From Escherichia phage HP3: a DNA stretch of 64,000 nucleotides. The translations under genes and the position numbers were made by a program. Positions 16,976 through 62,999 of the stretch are shown here, in pieces. The stretch lies in the sequence record NC_041919.1. One strand, 5' to 3'. The notes under the pieces were generated by a model. The model worked only from the letters and a program-made list of their open reading frames with translations. It was not told the origin of the DNA and made no database searches. The stretch's first letter is position 1. Every line of letters begins with the position of its first letter.

Positions 16976-17151
16976 AAGATGAACACCCAGACTTCTGAAA
17001 TAGATTATAATAAAATTCGTTCCTCTAAAGTAGAAATGATGAGACGCTTTAAAGAGTCTTACGATAAAGCTAAAGCAGAAGGAACTATAACATATAGGCG
17101 CAGAAAATTTAGAAGCTCTAATGAGCCTTTGTATGGCGTATTATGTGGATA

Positions 17152-17165
17152 GGAGCTTCGGCTCC
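17152..17165 (+). other. UUCG-tetraloop hairpin without T-run
   Basis: GGAGC-TTCG-GCTCC. Confidence 0.5.
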
Positions 17166-17168
17166 TAT

Positions 17169-17194
17169 ATTGCTTTATAAATTTTTGGTAAAAT
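17169..17194 (+). promoter_or_regulatory. MotA-dependent middle promoter candidate (alpha-gt)
   Basis: MotA box TTGCTTTA (17170-17177), 11-nt spacer, TAAAAT -10 (17189-17194). Confidence 0.55.
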
Positions 17195-17218
17195 AAACCA
17201 AAACAAAGAGGATATTAA

Positions 17219-18421
17219 ATGAAAGTATGTATTTTTATGGCTCGAGGTCTTGAAGGTTGTGGTGTAACAAAATTCTCACTCGAGCAACGTGATTGGTTTA
17301 TTAAGAATGGTCATGAAGTAACTTTGGTTTATGCTAAAGATAAATCATTTACTCGTACAAGTTCTCATGACCACAAATCATTTTCAATTCCAGTTATTTT
17401 AGCTAAAGAATACGATAAAGCACTTAAGCTGGTAAATGATTGTGATATTCTAATTATTAATTCTGTTCCTGCTACTTCCGTTCAAGAAGCCACGATTAAT
17501 AACTATAAAAAACTTTTAGATAATATTAAACCTTCTATTCGTGTTGTAGTTTATCAGCATGATCATTCTGTTCTTTCTTTGCGTCGAAATTTGGGATTAG
17601 AAGAAACTGTTCGTCGAGCTGATGTTATTTTTAGTCATTCTGATAATGGCGATTTTAATAAAGTTCTGATGAAAGAATGGTATCCAGAAACTGTTTCTCT
17701 GTTTGATGATATTGAAGAAGCACCAACAGTATATAATTTTCAGCCTCCTATGGATATTGCGAAAGTTCGATCAACCTACTGGAAAGATGTTTCTGAAATT
17801 AACATGAATATCAATCGTTGGATTGGTCGTACGACTACATGGAAAGGTTTTTACCAGATGTTTGATTTTCACGAAAAATTCTTAAAACCTGCTGGTAAAT
17901 CCACTGTAATGGAAGGTCTTGAACGTTCCCCTGCTTTTATTGCAATTAAGGAAAAAGGTATTCCGTATGAATATTACGGTAATCGTGAGATCGATAAAAT
18001 GAATCTCACGCCGAATCAACCGGCACAAATCCTAGATTGTTATATTAATAGTGAAATGCTTGAACGAATGAGTAAATCTGGCTTTGGATATCAGTTGAGT
18101 AAACTTAACCAGAAATACTTACAACGCTCACTAGAATATACTCATCTTGAATTAGGTGCTTGCGGTACAATTCCTGTTTTCTGGAAATCTACTGGCGAAA
18201 ATTTAAAATTCCGTGTTGATAATACTCCTTTGACCTCGCATGATAGCGGTATCATTTGGTTTGATGAAAATGACATGGAATCAACATTCGAGCGTATTAA
18301 AGAACTGTCATCTGACCGAGCTCTTTATGACCGTGAGCGAGAAAAAGCATATGAATTTTTGTATCAGCATCAAGATTCAAGCTTCTGCTTTAAAGAACAG
18401 TTTGACATTATTACAAAATAA
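17219..18421 (+). CDS. agt: DNA alpha-glucosyltransferase
   Basis: 400 aa; sequence (MKVCIFMARGLEGCGVTKFSLEQRDWFIKNGHEVTLVY...) matches remembered T4 alpha-gt. Confidence 0.9.
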   Translation: MKVCIFMARGLEGCGVTKFSLEQRDWFIKNGHEVTLVYAKDKSFTRTSSHDHKSFSIPVILAKEYDKALKLVNDCDILIINSVPATSVQEATINNYKKLLDNIKPSIRVVVYQHDHSVLSLRRNLGLEETVRRADVIFSHSDNGDFNKVLMKEWYPETVSLFDDIEEAPTVYNFQPPMDIAKVRSTYWKDVSEINMNINRWIGRTTTWKGFYQMFDFHEKFLKPAGKSTVMEGLERSPAFIAIKEKGIPYEYYGNREIDKMNLTPNQPAQILDCYINSEMLERMSKSGFGYQLSKLNQKYLQRSLEYTHLELGACGTIPVFWKSTGENLKFRVDNTPLTSHDSGIIWFDENDMESTFERIKELSSDRALYDREREKAYEFLYQHQDSSFCFKEQFDIITK

Positions 18422-18422
18422 A

Positions 18423-18462
18423 GGGCTTCGGCCCTTTAGCTTTATACGGAGTTTGATATAAT
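18423..18462 (+). promoter_or_regulatory. UUCG hairpin fused to MotA-box middle promoter
   Basis: GGGC-TTCG-GCCC then TTTAGCTTTA (18435-18444), 12-nt spacer, TATAAT (18457-18462); same module at 49885-49925. Confidence 0.55.
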
Positions 18463-18601
18463 GATATTTCTTGGATATGTGATACTTTTTCTCGCGTTTT
18501 ATCTATTCACTAGAGCATGTTGGATTGGGTTCTTTAGCACTCCAGATGGATTTATTTCAATAATTTTATTTTGCATTTCAATGACGGTTCTTGATATATG
18601 A
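18461..18601 (+). CDS. hypothetical small membrane protein (46 aa)
   Basis: ATG 18461, hydrophobic; stop overlaps gene 47 start (ATGA); the -10 above overlaps its start, so expression is uncertain. Confidence 0.35.
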   Translation: MIFLGYVILFLAFYLFTRACWIGFFSTPDGFISIILFCISMTVLDI

Positions 18602-19617
18602 AAATTTTAAATTTAGGTGATTGGCATTTAGGTGTTAAAGCTGATGATGAATGGATTCGCGGTATTCAAATTGATGGAATTAAGCAAGCGATAGAATATT
18701 CTAAGAAAAATGGAATTACTGTATGGATTCAATACGGTGATATTTTTGATGTACGAAAAGCGATCACGCATAAAACTATGGAGTTTGCCCGTGAAATAGT
18801 TCAAATGCTTGATGACGCTGGAATCACATTACATACTATTGTAGGAAATCACGATCTCCACTACAAAAATGTAATGCATCCAAATGCCTCTACTGAGCTT
18901 TTGGCTAAATATCCTAATGTTAAAGTATATGATAAGCCTACTACAGTAGATTTTGACGGATGTTTAATTGATTTAATTCCTTGGATGTGTGAAGAAAATA
19001 CTGGTGAAATTCTTGAGCACATCAAAACTTCATCTGCTTCTTTTTGTGTTGGTCACTGGGAACTGAATGGATTTTATTTTTATAAAGGAATGAAATCTCA
19101 TGGTCTTGAACCTGATTTCCTTAAGACTTATAAAGAAGTGTGGTCTGGTCACTTCCATACTATCTCTGAGGCTGCTAACGTCAGATATATTGGGACACCA
19201 TGGACACTAACTGCAGGTGACGAGAATGACCCTCGCGGGTTCTGGATGTTTGATACAGAAACAGAACGAATGGAATTTATTCCAAACAATACTACCTGGC
19301 ATCGTAGAATTCATTATCCATTTAAAGGAAAAATTGACTATAAAGATTTTACAAATCTATCAGTACGTGTTATAGTAACTGAAGTAGACAAAAATCTAAC
19401 GAAGTTCGAATCTGAACTAGAAAAAGTTGTGCATTCATTACGAGTTGTGTCAAAGATTGATAACTCTGTCGAGTCAGATGACAGTGAAGAAGTTGAAGTC
19501 CAATCGCTTCAGACATTAATGGAAGAGTATATTAATGCAATTCCAGACATCACTGATTCTGACCGTGAAGCACTTATTCAATATGCAAATCAGCTATATG
19601 TAGAGGCAACACAATGA
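18598..19617 (+). CDS. 47: recombination endonuclease subunit gp47 (Mre11-like)
   Basis: 339 aa; phosphoesterase motifs GDWH, GDIFD, GNHD, GHFH. Confidence 0.9.
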   Translation: MKILNLGDWHLGVKADDEWIRGIQIDGIKQAIEYSKKNGITVWIQYGDIFDVRKAITHKTMEFAREIVQMLDDAGITLHTIVGNHDLHYKNVMHPNASTELLAKYPNVKVYDKPTTVDFDGCLIDLIPWMCEENTGEILEHIKTSSASFCVGHWELNGFYFYKGMKSHGLEPDFLKTYKEVWSGHFHTISEAANVRYIGTPWTLTAGDENDPRGFWMFDTETERMEFIPNNTTWHRRIHYPFKGKIDYKDFTNLSVRVIVTEVDKNLTKFESELEKVVHSLRVVSKIDNSVESDDSEEVEVQSLQTLMEEYINAIPDITDSDREALIQYANQLYVEATQ

Positions 19618-22441: not shown

Positions 22442-23128
22442 ATGAAACTGTCTAAAGATACACTGAATATTTTGAAAAATTTCGCTACTATTAACTCTGG
22501 CATTATGCTTAAATCCGGTCAATTTATTATGACTCGCGCAGTTAATGGTACAACTTACGCGGAAGCAAATATTTCTGACGTTATTGATTTTGATGTAGCA
22601 ATTTACGATTTGAACGGTTTTCTCGGTATTCTGTCGCTAGTTAATGATGATGCAGAAATTTCCCAGTCAGAAGATGGAAATATTAAAATTGCTGATGCTC
22701 GTTCAACAATTTTTTGGCCAGCAGCCGATCCGAGTACAGTAGTTGCTCCTAATAAACCAATTCCATTTCCGGTAGCATCTGTTGTTACTGAAATTAAAGC
22801 TGAAGACCTTCAACAACTGTTGCGTGTATCTCGTGGTCTGCAAATTGATACAATTGCTATCACGGTAAAAGAAGGTAAAATCGTAATTAACGGTTTTAAT
22901 AAAGTAGAAGATTCTGCTCTGACCCGTGTTAAATATTCTTTGACTCTTGGTGATTATGATGGTGAAAATACATTTAATTTCATTATCAATATGGCAAATA
23001 TGAAAATGCAACCAGGAAATTATAAACTTCTGCTCTGGGCAAAAGGTAAACAAGGTGCTGCTAAATTTGAAGGTGAACACGCGAATTATGTGGTAGCTCT
23101 TGAAGCTGATTCTACCCACGATTTTTAA
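22442..23128 (+). CDS. 45: sliding clamp gp45
   Basis: 228 aa; sequence matches remembered T4 gp45. Confidence 0.95.
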   Translation: MKLSKDTLNILKNFATINSGIMLKSGQFIMTRAVNGTTYAEANISDVIDFDVAIYDLNGFLGILSLVNDDAEISQSEDGNIKIADARSTIFWPAADPSTVVAPNKPIPFPVASVVTEIKAEDLQQLLRVSRGLQIDTIAITVKEGKIVINGFNKVEDSALTRVKYSLTLGDYDGENTFNFIINMANMKMQPGNYKLLLWAKGKQGAAKFEGEHANYVVALEADSTHDF

Positions 23129-25297: not shown

Positions 25298-25301
25298 GCA
25301 A

Positions 25302-25320
25302 GGGGCTTCGGCCCCTTATT
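25302..25320 (+). terminator. UUCG hairpin (GGGGC-TTCG-GCCCC) with TTATTT
   Basis: follows ORF end at 25297. Confidence 0.55.
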
Positions 25321-25339
25321 TGGAGTATAATATATCAAG

Positions 25340-35556: not shown

Positions 35557-36585
35557 ATGTCATCAATACCTTGGATTGATAATGAGTTTGCGTATCGTGC
35601 ATTAGCTCATTTACCTAAATTCACACAAGTAAATAATAGTTCAACTTTTAAATTACGGTTTAGATGCCCAGTGTGTGGAGATTCAAAAACCGACCAAAAT
35701 AAAGCCCGTGGATGGTATTATGGTGATAATAATGAAGGAAATATTCATTGTTATAACTGTAACTATCATGCACCAATCGGAATATATTTAAAGGAGTTTG
35801 AACCTGATTTATATCGTGAGTATATCTTTGAAATAAGAAAAGAAAAAGGTAAAAGTCGTCCAGTAGAAAAACCTAAAGAACTTCCTAAACAACCTGAGAA
35901 GAAAATAATTAAATCTCTTCCGTCATGCGTTAGATTAGATAAACTGGCGGAAGACCATCCAATTATAAAATATGTAAAAGCTCGTTGTATTCCAAATGAT
36001 AAATGGAAATATCTTTGGTTTACAACCGAATGGCCTAAATTAGTTAATAGCATAGCACCAGGAACATACAAAAAGGAAATTTCTGAGCCTCGTCTTGTTA
36101 TTCCAATTTATAATGCTAATGGAAAAGCTGAGTCTTTTCAAGGACGTGCATTAAAGAAAGATGCTCCTCAAAAATATATCACCATTAAAGCTTATCCTGA
36201 GGCAACAAAAATATATGGAGTCGAACGAGTTAAAGATGGTGATGTATATGTTCTAGAAGGACCTATAGATTCACTTTTTATTGAAAATGGTATAGCTATT
36301 ACGGGTGGTCAATTAGACCTAGAAGTTGTTCCATTTAAAGATAGACGAGTGTGGGTTTTAGATAATGAACCTCGTCACCCTGACACTATCAAACGAATGA
36401 CTAAATTAGTTGATGCAGGAGAAAGAGTTATGTTTTGGGATAAATCTCCCTGGAAATCAAAAGATGTTAATGATATGATTAGAAAGGAAGGTGCAACCCC
36501 TGAACAAATTATGGAATATATGAAAAATAATATTGCCCAAGGGTTGATGGCTAAAATGCGGTTATCTAAATATGCCAAGATTTAA
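35557..36585 (+). CDS. 61: DNA primase gp61
   Basis: 342 aa; zinc ribbon CPVCGDS..CYNC; matches remembered T4 gp61 N-terminus. Confidence 0.95.
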   Translation: MSSIPWIDNEFAYRALAHLPKFTQVNNSSTFKLRFRCPVCGDSKTDQNKARGWYYGDNNEGNIHCYNCNYHAPIGIYLKEFEPDLYREYIFEIRKEKGKSRPVEKPKELPKQPEKKIIKSLPSCVRLDKLAEDHPIIKYVKARCIPNDKWKYLWFTTEWPKLVNSIAPGTYKKEISEPRLVIPIYNANGKAESFQGRALKKDAPQKYITIKAYPEATKIYGVERVKDGDVYVLEGPIDSLFIENGIAITGGQLDLEVVPFKDRRVWVLDNEPRHPDTIKRMTKLVDAGERVMFWDKSPWKSKDVNDMIRKEGATPEQIMEYMKNNIAQGLMAKMRLSKYAKI

Positions 36586-39467: not shown

Positions 39468-39473
39468 ATTCAA

Positions 39474-39497
39474 GGACTCCTTCGGGAGTCCTTTTTT
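39474..39497 (+). terminator. rho-independent terminator (GGACTCC-TTCG-GGAGTCC + T6)
   Basis: 7-bp stem, UUCG loop, T-run. Confidence 0.75.
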
Positions 39498-39507
39498 CAT
39501 TTTACCG

Positions 39508-39538
39508 GTTTACTTTCCAAAATGAGTATGGTATAATA
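39508..39538 (+). promoter_or_regulatory. T4-type early promoter
   Basis: GTTTAC 39508-39513, TGGTATAAT -10 at 39533-39538. Confidence 0.65.
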
Positions 39539-49622: not shown

Positions 49623-49883
49623 ATGAAATATATTAATCGTTCTATCGCAGCATTAGTATTAGCAGTGTCTTTAATAGGATGTACTGATGCTGATAATGCA
49701 ACCAAAGTTTTGTCTTCAAGTGGTTTTACTAATATTGAAATCACTGGATATAATTGGTTCGGTTGCTCTGAAAATGATTTCCAGCATACTGGATTTCGTG
49801 CTATTGGACCTACTGGGCAGAAAGTAGAAGGAACAGTATGTTCTGGACTATTCTTCAAGGATTCGACTATTCGTTTTAAATAA
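49623..49883 (+). CDS. putative lipoprotein (86 aa)
   Basis: ATG 49623; signal peptide with lipobox LIGC. Confidence 0.5.
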   Translation: MKYINRSIAALVLAVSLIGCTDADNATKVLSSSGFTNIEITGYNWFGCSENDFQHTGFRAIGPTGQKVEGTVCSGLFFKDSTIRFK

Positions 49884-49884
49884 A

Positions 49885-49925
49885 AGGCCTTCGGGCCTTT
49901 AGCTTTATGATTACCGGAGTATAAT
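49885..49925 (+). promoter_or_regulatory. UUCG hairpin fused to MotA-box middle promoter (gene 39)
   Basis: AGGCC-TTCG-GGCCT then TTTAGCTTTA (49898-49907), 12-nt spacer, TATAAT (49920-49925). Confidence 0.55.
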
Positions 49926-49952: not shown

Positions 49953-51770
49953 ATGATTAAGAATGAAATTAAAATTCTGAGCGATATTGAACATATCAAA
50001 AAGCGTAGCGGCATGTATATTGGCTCTTCTGCTAATGAAATGCATGAGCGCTTTCTGTTTGGTAAATGGGAAAGTGTTCAGTATGTACCTGGTCTTGTTA
50101 AGCTTATTGATGAAATTATCGATAACTCAGTAGATGAAGGTATTCGTACTAAGTTTAAATTCGCAAATAAAATTAATGTTACTATTAAAAACAATCAAGT
50201 AACAGTTGAAGATAACGGTCGCGGTATTCCACAAGCGATGGTCAAAACACCTACCGGTGAAGAAATTCCTGGTCCTGTTGCTGCATGGACTATTCCAAAA
50301 GCAGGTGGTAACTTTGGTGATGATAAAGAACGTGTCACCGGTGGTATGAATGGTGTTGGTTCTAGTTTGACAAACATTTTTTCTGTGATGTTTGTCGGTG
50401 AAACTGGTGATGGTCAAAATAATATTGTAGTTCGTTGTTCAAATGGCATGGAAAATAAATCATGGGAAGATATTCCTGGAAAATGGAAAGGAACTCGTGT
50501 TACTTTCATTCCTGATTTTATGTCATTTGAAACTAATGAGCTGTCTCAGGTTTATCTTGACATTACACTGGACCGTCTCCAGACACTCGCAGTAGTTTAT
50601 CCTGATATTCAATTTACCTTTAATGGTAAAAAGGTTCAGGGCAATTTTAAGAAATATGCACGCCAATATGATGAGCATGCTATTGTTCAAGAACAAGAAA
50701 ATTGTTCTATTGCGGTTGGTCGTTCACCGGATGGTTTTCGTCAATTAACATACGTTAATAACATTCATACTAAGAATGGTGGCCATCACATTGACTGTGT
50801 TATGGATGATATTTGTGAAGACCTTATTCCACAAATCAAACGTAAGTTCAAAATTGATGTGACTAAAGCACGCGTTAAAGAATGTTTGACTATCGTTATG
50901 TTTGTCCGTGATATGAAAAACATGCGATTTGATTCTCAAACTAAAGAGCGTTTGACTTCTCCATTTGGTGAAATCCGTAGTCATATTCAACTTGATGCTA
51001 AAAAGATTTCACGTGCTATTCTAAATAATGAAGCAATTCTAATGCCGATTATTGAAGCTGCTTTGGCTCGTAAATTGGCGGCAGAAAAAGCAGCAGAAAC
51101 TAAAGCAGCTAAAAAGGCTTCTAAAGCTAAGGTTCATAAACATATCAAAGCGAATCTTTGTGGTAAAGATGCTGACACTACTCTTTTCTTGACTGAGGGT
51201 GATTCGGCTATCGGATATCTTATTGATGTTCGTGATAAAGAACTTCATGGTGGTTATCCATTGCGCGGTAAAGTTCTCAACAGTTGGGGTATGTCATATG
51301 CTGATATGCTTAAAAACAAAGAATTGTTTGATATTTGCGCAATCACTGGATTAGTTCTCGGTGAAAAAGCTGAAAACTTGAATTATCATAATATCGCTAT
51401 TATGACTGATGCTGACCATGATGGTCTAGGAAGCATTTATCCTTCTCTGCTCGGGTTTTTTAGTAATTGGCCAGAACTGTTTGAGCAAGGAAGAATTCGT
51501 TTTGTCAAAACTCCTGTAATCATCGCTCAGGTCGGTAAAAAACAAGAATGGTTTTATACAGTCGCTGAATATGAGAGTGCTAAAGATGCTCTACCTAAAC
51601 ATAGCATCCGTTATATTAAAGGACTTGGCTCTTTGGAAAAATCTGAATATCGTGAGATGATTCAAAATCCAGTATATGATGTTGTTAAACTTCCTGAGAA
51701 CTGGAAAGAGCTTTTTGAAATGCTCATGGGAGATAATGCTGACCTTCGTAAAGAATGGATGAGCCAGTAG
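49953..51770 (+). CDS. 39: DNA topoisomerase II large subunit gp39 (GyrB-like), unsplit
   Basis: 605 aa from ATG 49953; GHKL ATPase and Toprim (EGDSA) motifs in one frame. Confidence 0.95.
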   Translation: MIKNEIKILSDIEHIKKRSGMYIGSSANEMHERFLFGKWESVQYVPGLVKLIDEIIDNSVDEGIRTKFKFANKINVTIKNNQVTVEDNGRGIPQAMVKTPTGEEIPGPVAAWTIPKAGGNFGDDKERVTGGMNGVGSSLTNIFSVMFVGETGDGQNNIVVRCSNGMENKSWEDIPGKWKGTRVTFIPDFMSFETNELSQVYLDITLDRLQTLAVVYPDIQFTFNGKKVQGNFKKYARQYDEHAIVQEQENCSIAVGRSPDGFRQLTYVNNIHTKNGGHHIDCVMDDICEDLIPQIKRKFKIDVTKARVKECLTIVMFVRDMKNMRFDSQTKERLTSPFGEIRSHIQLDAKKISRAILNNEAILMPIIEAALARKLAAEKAAETKAAKKASKAKVHKHIKANLCGKDADTTLFLTEGDSAIGYLIDVRDKELHGGYPLRGKVLNSWGMSYADMLKNKELFDICAITGLVLGEKAENLNYHNIAIMTDADHDGLGSIYPSLLGFFSNWPELFEQGRIRFVKTPVIIAQVGKKQEWFYTVAEYESAKDALPKHSIRYIKGLGSLEKSEYREMIQNPVYDVVKLPENWKELFEMLMGDNADLRKEWMSQ

Positions 51771-60113: not shown

Positions 60114-60749
60114 ATGTCTAAAGTAACTTACATCATCAAAGCTTCTAACGATGTTCTGAATGAAAAAACTGCTGCGATTTTAATTACCATTGCTAAGAAA
60201 GATTTCATTACAGCCGCAGAAGTTCGTGAGGTGCATCCAGATTTAGGTAATGCAGTAGTTAATAGTAATATTGGGGTATTGATTAAAAAAGGCCTGGTGG
60301 AGAAATCTGGTGATGGATTAATCATTACTGGTGAAGCTCAGGATATTATTTCAAATGCAGCAACTTTATACGCACAGGAAAACGCTCCGGAACTGCTGAA
60401 AAAACGAGCAACTCGTAAAGCTCGTGAGATTACTTCTGATATGGAAGAAGATAAAGACTTCATGTTAAAACTTTTAGATGAAAATGGATTTGTTCTTAAA
60501 AAGGTTGAAACTTACCGCAGTAACTATCTCGCTATTTTAGAAAAACGCACTCACGGAATTCGTAATTTTGAAATTAACAACAATGGAAATATGCGAATTT
60601 TTGGATACAAAATGATGGAACATCATATTCAGAAATTTACTGACATCGGAATGTCATGTAAAATCGCTAAAAACGGTAATGTGTATCTTGACATTAAACG
60701 CTCGGCAGAAAACATTGAAGCTGTAATCACTGTAGCATCTGAACTGTGA
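60114..60749 (+). CDS. motA: middle-transcription activator MotA
   Basis: 211 aa; matches remembered T4 MotA. Confidence 0.9.
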   Translation: MSKVTYIIKASNDVLNEKTAAILITIAKKDFITAAEVREVHPDLGNAVVNSNIGVLIKKGLVEKSGDGLIITGEAQDIISNAATLYAQENAPELLKKRATRKAREITSDMEEDKDFMLKLLDENGFVLKKVETYRSNYLAILEKRTHGIRNFEINNNGNMRIFGYKMMEHHIQKFTDIGMSCKIAKNGNVYLDIKRSAENIEAVITVASEL

Positions 60750-62726: not shown

Positions 62727-62999
62727 ATGAATAAAAACATTGATACAGTTCGTGAAATTATTACTGTTGCATCTATTTTGATTAAATTTTCCAGAGAAGA
62801 TATTGTTGAGAATCGTGCTAATTTTATTGCATTTCTTAATGAGATTGGAGTAACGCATGAAGGTAGAAAGTTAAATCAGAATTCATTTCGTAAAATTGTT
62901 TCTGAATTAACTCAAGAAGATAAGAAAACCCTCATCGATGAATTCAACGAGGGTTTTGAGGGTGTATATCGATATCTAGAAATGTATACGAACAAATAA
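62727..62999 (+). CDS. asiA: anti-sigma70 factor AsiA
   Basis: 90 aa; MNKNIDTVREIITVASILIKFSREDIVENRANFIAFLNEIG matches remembered T4 AsiA. Confidence 0.9.
   Translation: MNKNIDTVREIITVASILIKFSREDIVENRANFIAFLNEIGVTHEGRKLNQNSFRKIVSELTQEDKKTLIDEFNEGFEGVYRYLEMYTNK

Follow-up and report, generated by a model that had tools for sequence, protein, structure and literature searches.

Middle promoters matching P47 and P39 of T4 overlap C(UUCG)G hairpins upstream of genes 47 and 39 in Escherichia phage HP3

The middle genes of phage T4 receive RNA that reads through from early promoters as well as RNA from middle promoters of their own, whose MotA box follows the consensus (a/t)(a/t)(a/t)TGCTT(t/c)A and is centred near -30 (Hinton 2010, PMC2988021). 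Table 1 of that paper gives the start of promoter P47 as T4 position 36576, citing Guild 1988 and Hsu and Karam 1990, and that of P39 as 5349, citing Guild 1988. According to the account in PMC4371310, hairpins of the C(UUCG)G type were discovered in T4 mRNA in 1988, and stem-loops have been described together with promoters in phages and in bacteria. The PeSL elements of T4-type phages are composite promoter/stem-loop cassettes that mediate recombination and for which attenuation has been proposed (Arbiol 2010, PMC2839356; Comeau 2014, PMC4122927); they lie in short intergenic spaces, carry sigma-70 early promoters, usually with the stem-loop between -35 and -10 or over the -10, and form recombining repeats of about 100 bp around ORFans in hyperplastic regions. 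The terminator of mobE, a T4 hairpin with a short U-tract, terminates about 30% of transcription, and 50% late in infection, and the middle promoter of nrdB further downstream is said to compensate (Wilson and Edgell 2009, PMC2790892). In bacteria, termination increases through polymerase collision when a promoter is coupled to the terminator within 35 bp or less (Fletcher et al. 2026, bioRxiv 10.64898/2026.08.19.745784); in these bacterial cases a hairpin lies between tandem genes within 35 bp of a start on the same strand, and the DNA is used twice, the stem-loop serving as the -35 and the T-tract lying just before the -10, at a modal distance of about 10 bp. The promoters, the hairpin class and the idea of a terminator-promoter cassette in T4-type phages are all published already, and it is against these systems that we compare two sites in the genome of Escherichia phage HP3.

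The window analysed here is a stretch of 64,000 nucleotides of this phage (NC_041919.1). Over the 600 bases surrounding each site, identity is 100% with Escherichia phage HP3.1 and 95-99% with hundreds of other Tequatrovirus genomes, and with T4 it is 98% at site 1 (among the matches listed). The window is about 98% identical to T4 and by this measure is the DNA of a T4-type phage. At both sites the sequence of T4 (AF158101) is identical from the hairpin to past the start site. An earlier note on this DNA had described near-identical modules at the two loci, each made of a hairpin, the box TTTAGCTTTA, a 12-nt spacer and TATAAT, and this composition was confirmed to the base (Table 1). The note had also expected starts 7-8 nt past the TATAAT elements, and the published starts of P47 and P39 in T4 lie exactly 7 nt downstream. 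The element that it had called MotA-box-like is one, with a single deviation from the consensus, A in place of T before GCTT, which falls within the tolerated range. The 12-bp spacer is inside the 11-13 bp of MotA/AsiA-dependent promoters, and a sigma-70 scan found no -35/-10 pair, and no -35 element, at either site. Genes for MotA, the activator that recognises MotA boxes, and for its partner AsiA are also present in the window. Because of the identity with T4, the position of the published starts and the presence of both proteins, we regard the two promoters as real and already known: to judge from their sequence, they are the mapped MotA-dependent T4 middle promoters P47 and P39, from which they do not differ in any element, the starts having been mapped in T4 and placed here by identity. 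The GenBank records of T4 have no promoter or terminator features annotated, and record X01804 annotates the site 1 hairpin as 'dyad symmetry'.

Table 1. Positions in the window of the hairpin-linked middle promoters, of the reading frames next to them and of the genes for MotA and AsiA
Feature	Position	Strand	Remarks
PmobB hairpin, ATAGGAGC-TTCG-GCTCCTAT	17149-17168	+	Module upstream of a-gt
PmobB MotA box, TATTGCTTTA	17168-17177	+	Canonical
PmobB -10 element, TAAAAT	17189-17194	+	Third module of the same build; equals T4 PmobB
Site 1 hairpin, TAAAGGGC-TTCG-GCCCTTTA	18419-18438	+	8-bp stem; GC core 18423-18434
P47 MotA box, TTTAGCTTTA	18435-18444	+	First 3-4 nt shared with the hairpin's 3' arm
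Site 1 spacer, TACGGAGTTTGA	18445-18456	+	12 nt
GGAG in P47 spacer	18448-18451	+	Shine-Dalgarno of 47.1 (annotated RBS); candidate RegB motif
P47 -10 element, TATAAT	18457-18462	+	Overlaps ATG of 47.1 (18461-18463)
ORF 47.1	18461-18601	+	Predicted membrane protein, 46 aa; conserved in relatives
P47 transcription start	18469	+	By identity with T4 36576; 7 nt past -10, 8 nt inside 47.1
Gene 47	18598-19617	+	Recombination endonuclease subunit; first large gene served by P47
P43 module	25300-25331	+	Hairpin AAGGGGC-TTCG-GCCCCTT at 25300-25317
P43 GGAG	25322-25325	+	
P43 TATAAT	25326-25331	+	
Site 2 hairpin, AAAGGCC-TTCG-GGCCTTT	49883-49900	+	7-bp stem; GC core 49886-49897
P39 MotA box, TTTAGCTTTA	49898-49907	+	Overlaps 3' arm of the hairpin by 3 nt
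Site 2 spacer, TGATTACCGGAG	49908-49919	+	12 nt
GGAG just 5' of P39 -10	49916-49919	+	Candidate RegB site; Shine-Dalgarno of no gene
P39 -10 element, TATAAT	49920-49925	+	
P39 transcription start	49932	+	By identity with T4 5349; 7 nt past -10, 21 nt before ATG of gene 39 (49953)
Gene 39	49953-51770	+	Topoisomerase II large subunit
motA	60114-60749	+	Activator reading MotA boxes; Pfam MotA_activ and MotCF, E = 5e-61 and 9e-67
asiA	62727-62999	+	Co-activator and anti-sigma factor; Pfam AsiA, E = 1e-42

Both modules occupy intergenic gaps of 40-70 nt between genes that are all on the + strand, and their hairpins, of the C(UUCG)G type, form the 3' ends of the genes a-gt (site 1) and 39.1 (site 2). 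The stop codon TAA of a-gt (18419-18421) lies within the 5' arm of the first hairpin, and that of 39.1 is at 49881-49883. Site 2 directly precedes gene 39, as had been claimed; site 1 had been assigned to gene 47 in the same way, but it is the 46-codon ORF 47.1 that comes directly next, with an overlap onto gene 47, which itself begins only at 18598. The GC parts of the stems, GGGC-UUCG-GCCC at site 1 and GGCC-UUCG-GGCC at site 2, are lengthened by A-U pairs, and both hairpins fold as drawn, with minimum free energies of -12.7 and -10.8 kcal/mol for the 48-nt stretches of sites 1 and 2, respectively. The contact between stem and MotA box that had been pointed out exists, but it is closer than an abutment, the stem overlapping the box by 3-4 nt, and as RNA the P47 box is the U-rich tail of the site 1 hairpin. 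The 26-nt cores of the two sites (AAAGGSCTTCGGSCCTTTAGCTTTAT) match at 24 positions, the two differences amounting, in an alignment judged by eye, to a single compensatory swap of G:C to C:G in the stem, and the flanks are no more alike than chance would make them (identity at 11/37 and 12/41 positions). These flanks, together with the fact that the two modules are unlike each other within other phages, rule out an origin by duplication. The composite pattern of hairpin, box, spacer and TATAAT has two occurrences in the window, and 100 dinucleotide-preserving shuffles did not produce it once. An Rfam scan of 17000-18700 returned no family at E <= 1.

As members of a class, both hairpins qualify as T4 C(UUCG)G intercistronic hairpins on the mRNA strand, sharing with the described ones the UUCG loop, the C-G closure, the short GC stem and the restriction to the transcribed strand; they differ in that their 3' arm and tail double as promoter DNA. 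Counting UUCG loops with a C-G closing pair and at least six stem pairs, we found 12 such hairpins in the window, all on the transcribed + strand, the only match on the - strand being a weak A/T-rich stem. Most of the other copies have a T-run, a ribosome-binding site or an early promoter behind them: the hairpins at 1070 and 39472 lead into a long T-run and an early-type promoter, and those at 23128, 55164 and 57847 into a ribosome-binding site. Middle promoters follow the hairpins at 17149, 18419 and 49883, and the hairpin at 25300 takes the position of a MotA box, so that the window holds two more hairpin-linked middle promoters, PmobB (17149-17194) and P43 (25300-25331), besides the pair described in the earlier note. 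At P43 the GCTTC of stem and loop is the sole box-like core. Regarding the surroundings of these two, the PmobB module (17149-17221) lies directly before a-gt in this phage, in which the homing-endonuclease gene mobB, situated in T4 between PmobB and a-gt, is absent, and the gp43 operator hairpin, with a UAAC loop, starts a few bases past the P43 start site (25300-25336). At 1070-1130 and 39472-39537 the CUUCGG hairpins have long T-runs, with early-type promoters (GTTTAC ... TATAAT, one with TG) about 15-40 nt further on, and for that reason the packing of a terminator followed by a promoter is found with early promoters as well. On its - strand, the palindrome of site 1 is followed by TTTTGTAATA, and the scan calls a terminator-like structure there; antisense (late) transcription might be halted by the palindrome as well.

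The layout is real and conserved and not due to chance. In the assembled T4 genome we took the 68 strong hairpins on the transcribed strand and determined the distance from each to the next mapped middle-promoter start. The smallest distances were 19 (P43), 31 (P47), 32 (P39) and 33 nt (PmobB), the next ones being 57, 136 and 275 nt; four starts thus lie in the first 40 nt past a hairpin, against about 0.5 per 40 nt further out. Since only three or four of the 56 mapped T4 middle promoters carry the arrangement, hairpin-linked promoters are a small class and not the rule. Relatives were represented by the loci of gp47 and gp39 homologues from viral contigs, with protein identities of 61-100%, and the divergent ones (61-82% protein identity) show the layout again in front of genes 47 and 39. 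Upstream of 47 or 47.1, they keep the order of hairpin, T-run, GCTT, 11-13 nt and -10, and wherever both elements are present the T-run of the hairpin merges into the GCTT of the MotA box. The stems themselves change: seven were found over the two loci (GGGC, GGCC, GGGCC, GGACC, GGAGC, GGAGCC and GGAAGC), all perfectly complemented, with UUCG, UUAG, UACG, GCAA and CUAGU as loops. Formal covariation was weak when 17 modules were aligned with MAFFT and RNAalifold, stems of unequal length falling out of register, and stem conservation was judged instead by the perfect stem of each sequence. Nearly all relatives retain the gene-39 promoter, at about -50 relative to the ATG. The gene-39 hairpin is present in some lineages, and several others lack it, their stop codon leading into the box as TAATGCTTTA. 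Hairpin and promoter are therefore separable.

The T4-type modules differ from those of relatives in one base of the box. Both carry TTTAGCTTTA, which on the transcribed strand of T4 occurs only at the P47 and P39 sites, and the relatives have TTTTGCTTTA or TTCTGCTTTC at both loci (L012-L056). This change from T to A, common to two unlinked modules, lowers both the match to the MotA box and the score of the hairpin as a terminator; parallel selection and gene conversion are the options that may be named for it.

Both hairpins had been taken for terminators of early transcripts. A GC-rich hairpin is indeed present at each site, but the T4-type versions look weak as terminators. Their tail, UUUAGCUUUA, is a poor U-tract next to the U-rich tract of 7-9 nt expected of an intrinsic terminator, and a simple terminator scan called neither hairpin on the + strand. 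On a discriminant of the d'Aubenton-Carafa type, which with the modern energies used here is a rough guide only, they score about -13, below the threshold, against +12 to +57 for the T-run hairpins of the window. The orthologous modules of relatives, whose tail is TTTTTGCTTTA, a canonical MotA box, score +3 to +43; the MotA box is a respectable U-tract in most relatives, and the T-to-A change weakens it in the T4-type versions. The mobE hairpin likewise has a short U-tract, terminates about 30-50% of transcription and is followed by a middle promoter, differing from the present sites in that hundreds of bases separate its terminator from the promoter, with no overlap between them.

Little or no drop in RNA is seen across the hairpins in published RNA-seq of T4 at 5 min, for which we computed reads per nucleotide from Table S1 of Patterson-West 2018 (PMC6024815). 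Gene 39 has a value of 32.3 in wild type and 47.0 in the motA-amber infection, compared with 26.7 and 49.5, respectively, for 39.1, and there is no loss across the gene-39 hairpin in wild type at the level of these gene counts. Gene 47 has 30.0 in wild type and 5.1 in motA-amber, compared with 49.5 and 8.8 for a-gt, a loss of about 40% that is alike with and without MotA (ratios of 0.61 and 0.57), which is a weak test of coupling. The counts are crude and gene-level, the short genes 39.1 and 47.1 are under-counted, and RNA stability is not separable from synthesis; with this proviso, P39 supplies roughly 20-25% of gene 39 RNA. The motA amber is moreover leaky, and the promoters upstream of a-gt are themselves MotA-dependent. 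For genes 46 and 47, the text of the same paper describes near wild-type levels in motA-amber, in conflict with the fold changes of 0.20 and 0.15 in Table S1, and given this conflict only the table was used. The authors of these data state that the 3' ends mapped in T4 are regarded as belonging to stable RNA and not as sites of termination (PMC6024815), and our literature search found no T4 Term-seq or Cappable-seq paper and no nucleotide-resolution ends for these T4 hairpins. At 49725-49754, inside 39.1 or at its start, there is a sigma-70-like TTTACT-18-TATAAT, perhaps an early promoter and a source of the RNA that passes the gene-39 hairpin.

The reading frame at site 1 bears on the same question. 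Because P47 starts inside 47.1, and the GGAG that serves this frame as Shine-Dalgarno lies in the promoter spacer, P47 transcripts are unable to encode the protein, whose translation is possible only from RNA that has passed the hairpin. ORF 47.1 is conserved at the protein level in divergent phages, in which the promoter lies upstream of its ribosome-binding site. In T4-type phages 47.1 must thus depend on read-through, which is an argument for a leaky site 1 hairpin.

A GGAG is present in the spacer between box and -10 in three of the four hairpin-linked promoters (P47, P43 and P39) as against 1/52 of the other T4 middle promoters. This concentration is a post-hoc observation, and over the spacers of all 56 T4 middle promoters the frequency of GGAG (4/56, P = 0.05) is not significant. 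P39 and P43 have the 12-mer GGAGTATAATAT in common, and GGAG recurs in the spacers of relatives (L012-L015, L021, L025, L031 and L056). The motif would be confined to read-through RNA, so the spacer GGAGs are candidate sites for RegB, whose processing has been reported to stimulate gp43 synthesis (PMC3014915).

The explanation that we consider probable is that the known promoters P47 and P39 have each been fused, by compaction, to a leaky hairpin that ends the upstream cistron. The very stable C(UUCG)G hairpin with which a-gt or 39.1 ends would act on incoming RNA as a leaky attenuator, and also as a barrier to 3' exonucleases, rather than as an efficient terminator, and P47 and P39, starting 7 nt past TATAAT, would add transcripts for genes 47-46 and 39 to the read-through. 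The T-rich tail of a hairpin and the T/A-rich 5' half of a MotA box (TTTTGCTTTA) can be the same bases, which is why the two elements always touch, and genome compaction would therefore fuse them. From these considerations we infer that the hairpins attenuate or stabilise RNA and that no special coupling mechanism is at work. Two observations sit less well with this explanation: the constant spacing of 31-33 nt and the shared T-to-A change are tighter than compaction would simply require, and the modules of relatives reach the score of a good terminator, with attenuation that may be strong in those phages.

A different reading, which we hold to be rather improbable, is that each module is a phage version of the promoter-coupled terminators of bacteria. 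Polymerase held at the middle promoter by MotA and AsiA would block or pause the early polymerases arriving from upstream and so bring about termination at an otherwise weak hairpin, the MotA box serving as U-tract; once MotA appears, MotA-driven initiation would replace early read-through. Taken together with the GGAG motifs as marks that expose read-through RNA to RegB, this would make up a handover of genes 47, 39 and 43 from early read-through to middle initiation, a combined scheme to which we give the same low credence. The predicted release points, 7-9 nt past the GC core, are about 26-28 bp before the starts and thus within the range of 35 bp or less, the spacing from hairpin to start is fixed at 31-33 nt at three T4 promoters, and the abutment of hairpin and box is conserved in relatives. 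P43 even has the modal geometry of the preprint, with the stem-loop at -35 and a T-run just before the -10. However, P43 is the only one that fits the bacterial geometry, the T-tract of sites 1 and 2 being the MotA site at a longer predicted distance, and the preprint of Fletcher et al. mentions neither phages nor activator-dependent promoters. Also speaking against this mechanism are the almost equal ratio of a-gt to gene 47 RNA with and without functional MotA, weak as that test is, the absence of any drop from 39.1 to 39 in wild type, the dependence of 47.1 on read-through and the lineages in which the gene-39 promoter has no hairpin.

We think it very unlikely that the modules are recombination cassettes, a middle-promoter counterpart of the PeSL elements that would be homogenised and would mark module boundaries for gene shuffling. 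PeSLs do mediate recombination in T4-type phages, the neighbours upstream of the modules vary from phage to phage, the module and genes 47 and 39 being constant, and both T4-type modules share the unusual A in TTTAGCTTTA. Nevertheless, the similarity of the two sites extends over 26 nt and the -10 only, not over about 100 bp, the promoters are middle and not early, and the two modules of one genome are unlike in other phages (L017 as compared with L041). Recombination between the two copies would, in addition, be lethal, because these direct repeats, 31 kb apart, flank essential replication genes. Membership of the PeSL elements proper is ruled out by the promoter class, the repeat length and the location beside the core genes 47 and 39. 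Finally, that both kinds of element are merely confined to a few intergenic gaps and adjoin there to no consequence, as the rarity of the arrangement among mapped T4 middle promoters and the many CUUCGG hairpins followed by ribosome-binding sites or early promoters might suggest, is hardly credible in view of the sharp enrichment of hairpin ends 19-33 nt before mapped starts, the persistence of the layout with changed stems at two orthologous positions in divergent phages, and the empty shuffles.

With two textbook T4 promoters and classic UUCG hairpins re-discovered, the finding adds little to what is known of either. What it does contribute is that the MotA box is the tail of a hairpin at conserved positions and that the T4-type versions share a weakening substitution: three or four loci use one set of bases as both T-run and MotA box, and divergent T4-like phages retain this while their stems change. 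Were the occupancy of the promoter to control read-through, T4 would be the first phage, and its middle promoters the first activator-dependent ones, with coupling of promoter and terminator, and this would bear on the old question of the balance between 'delayed-early' read-through and middle promoters.
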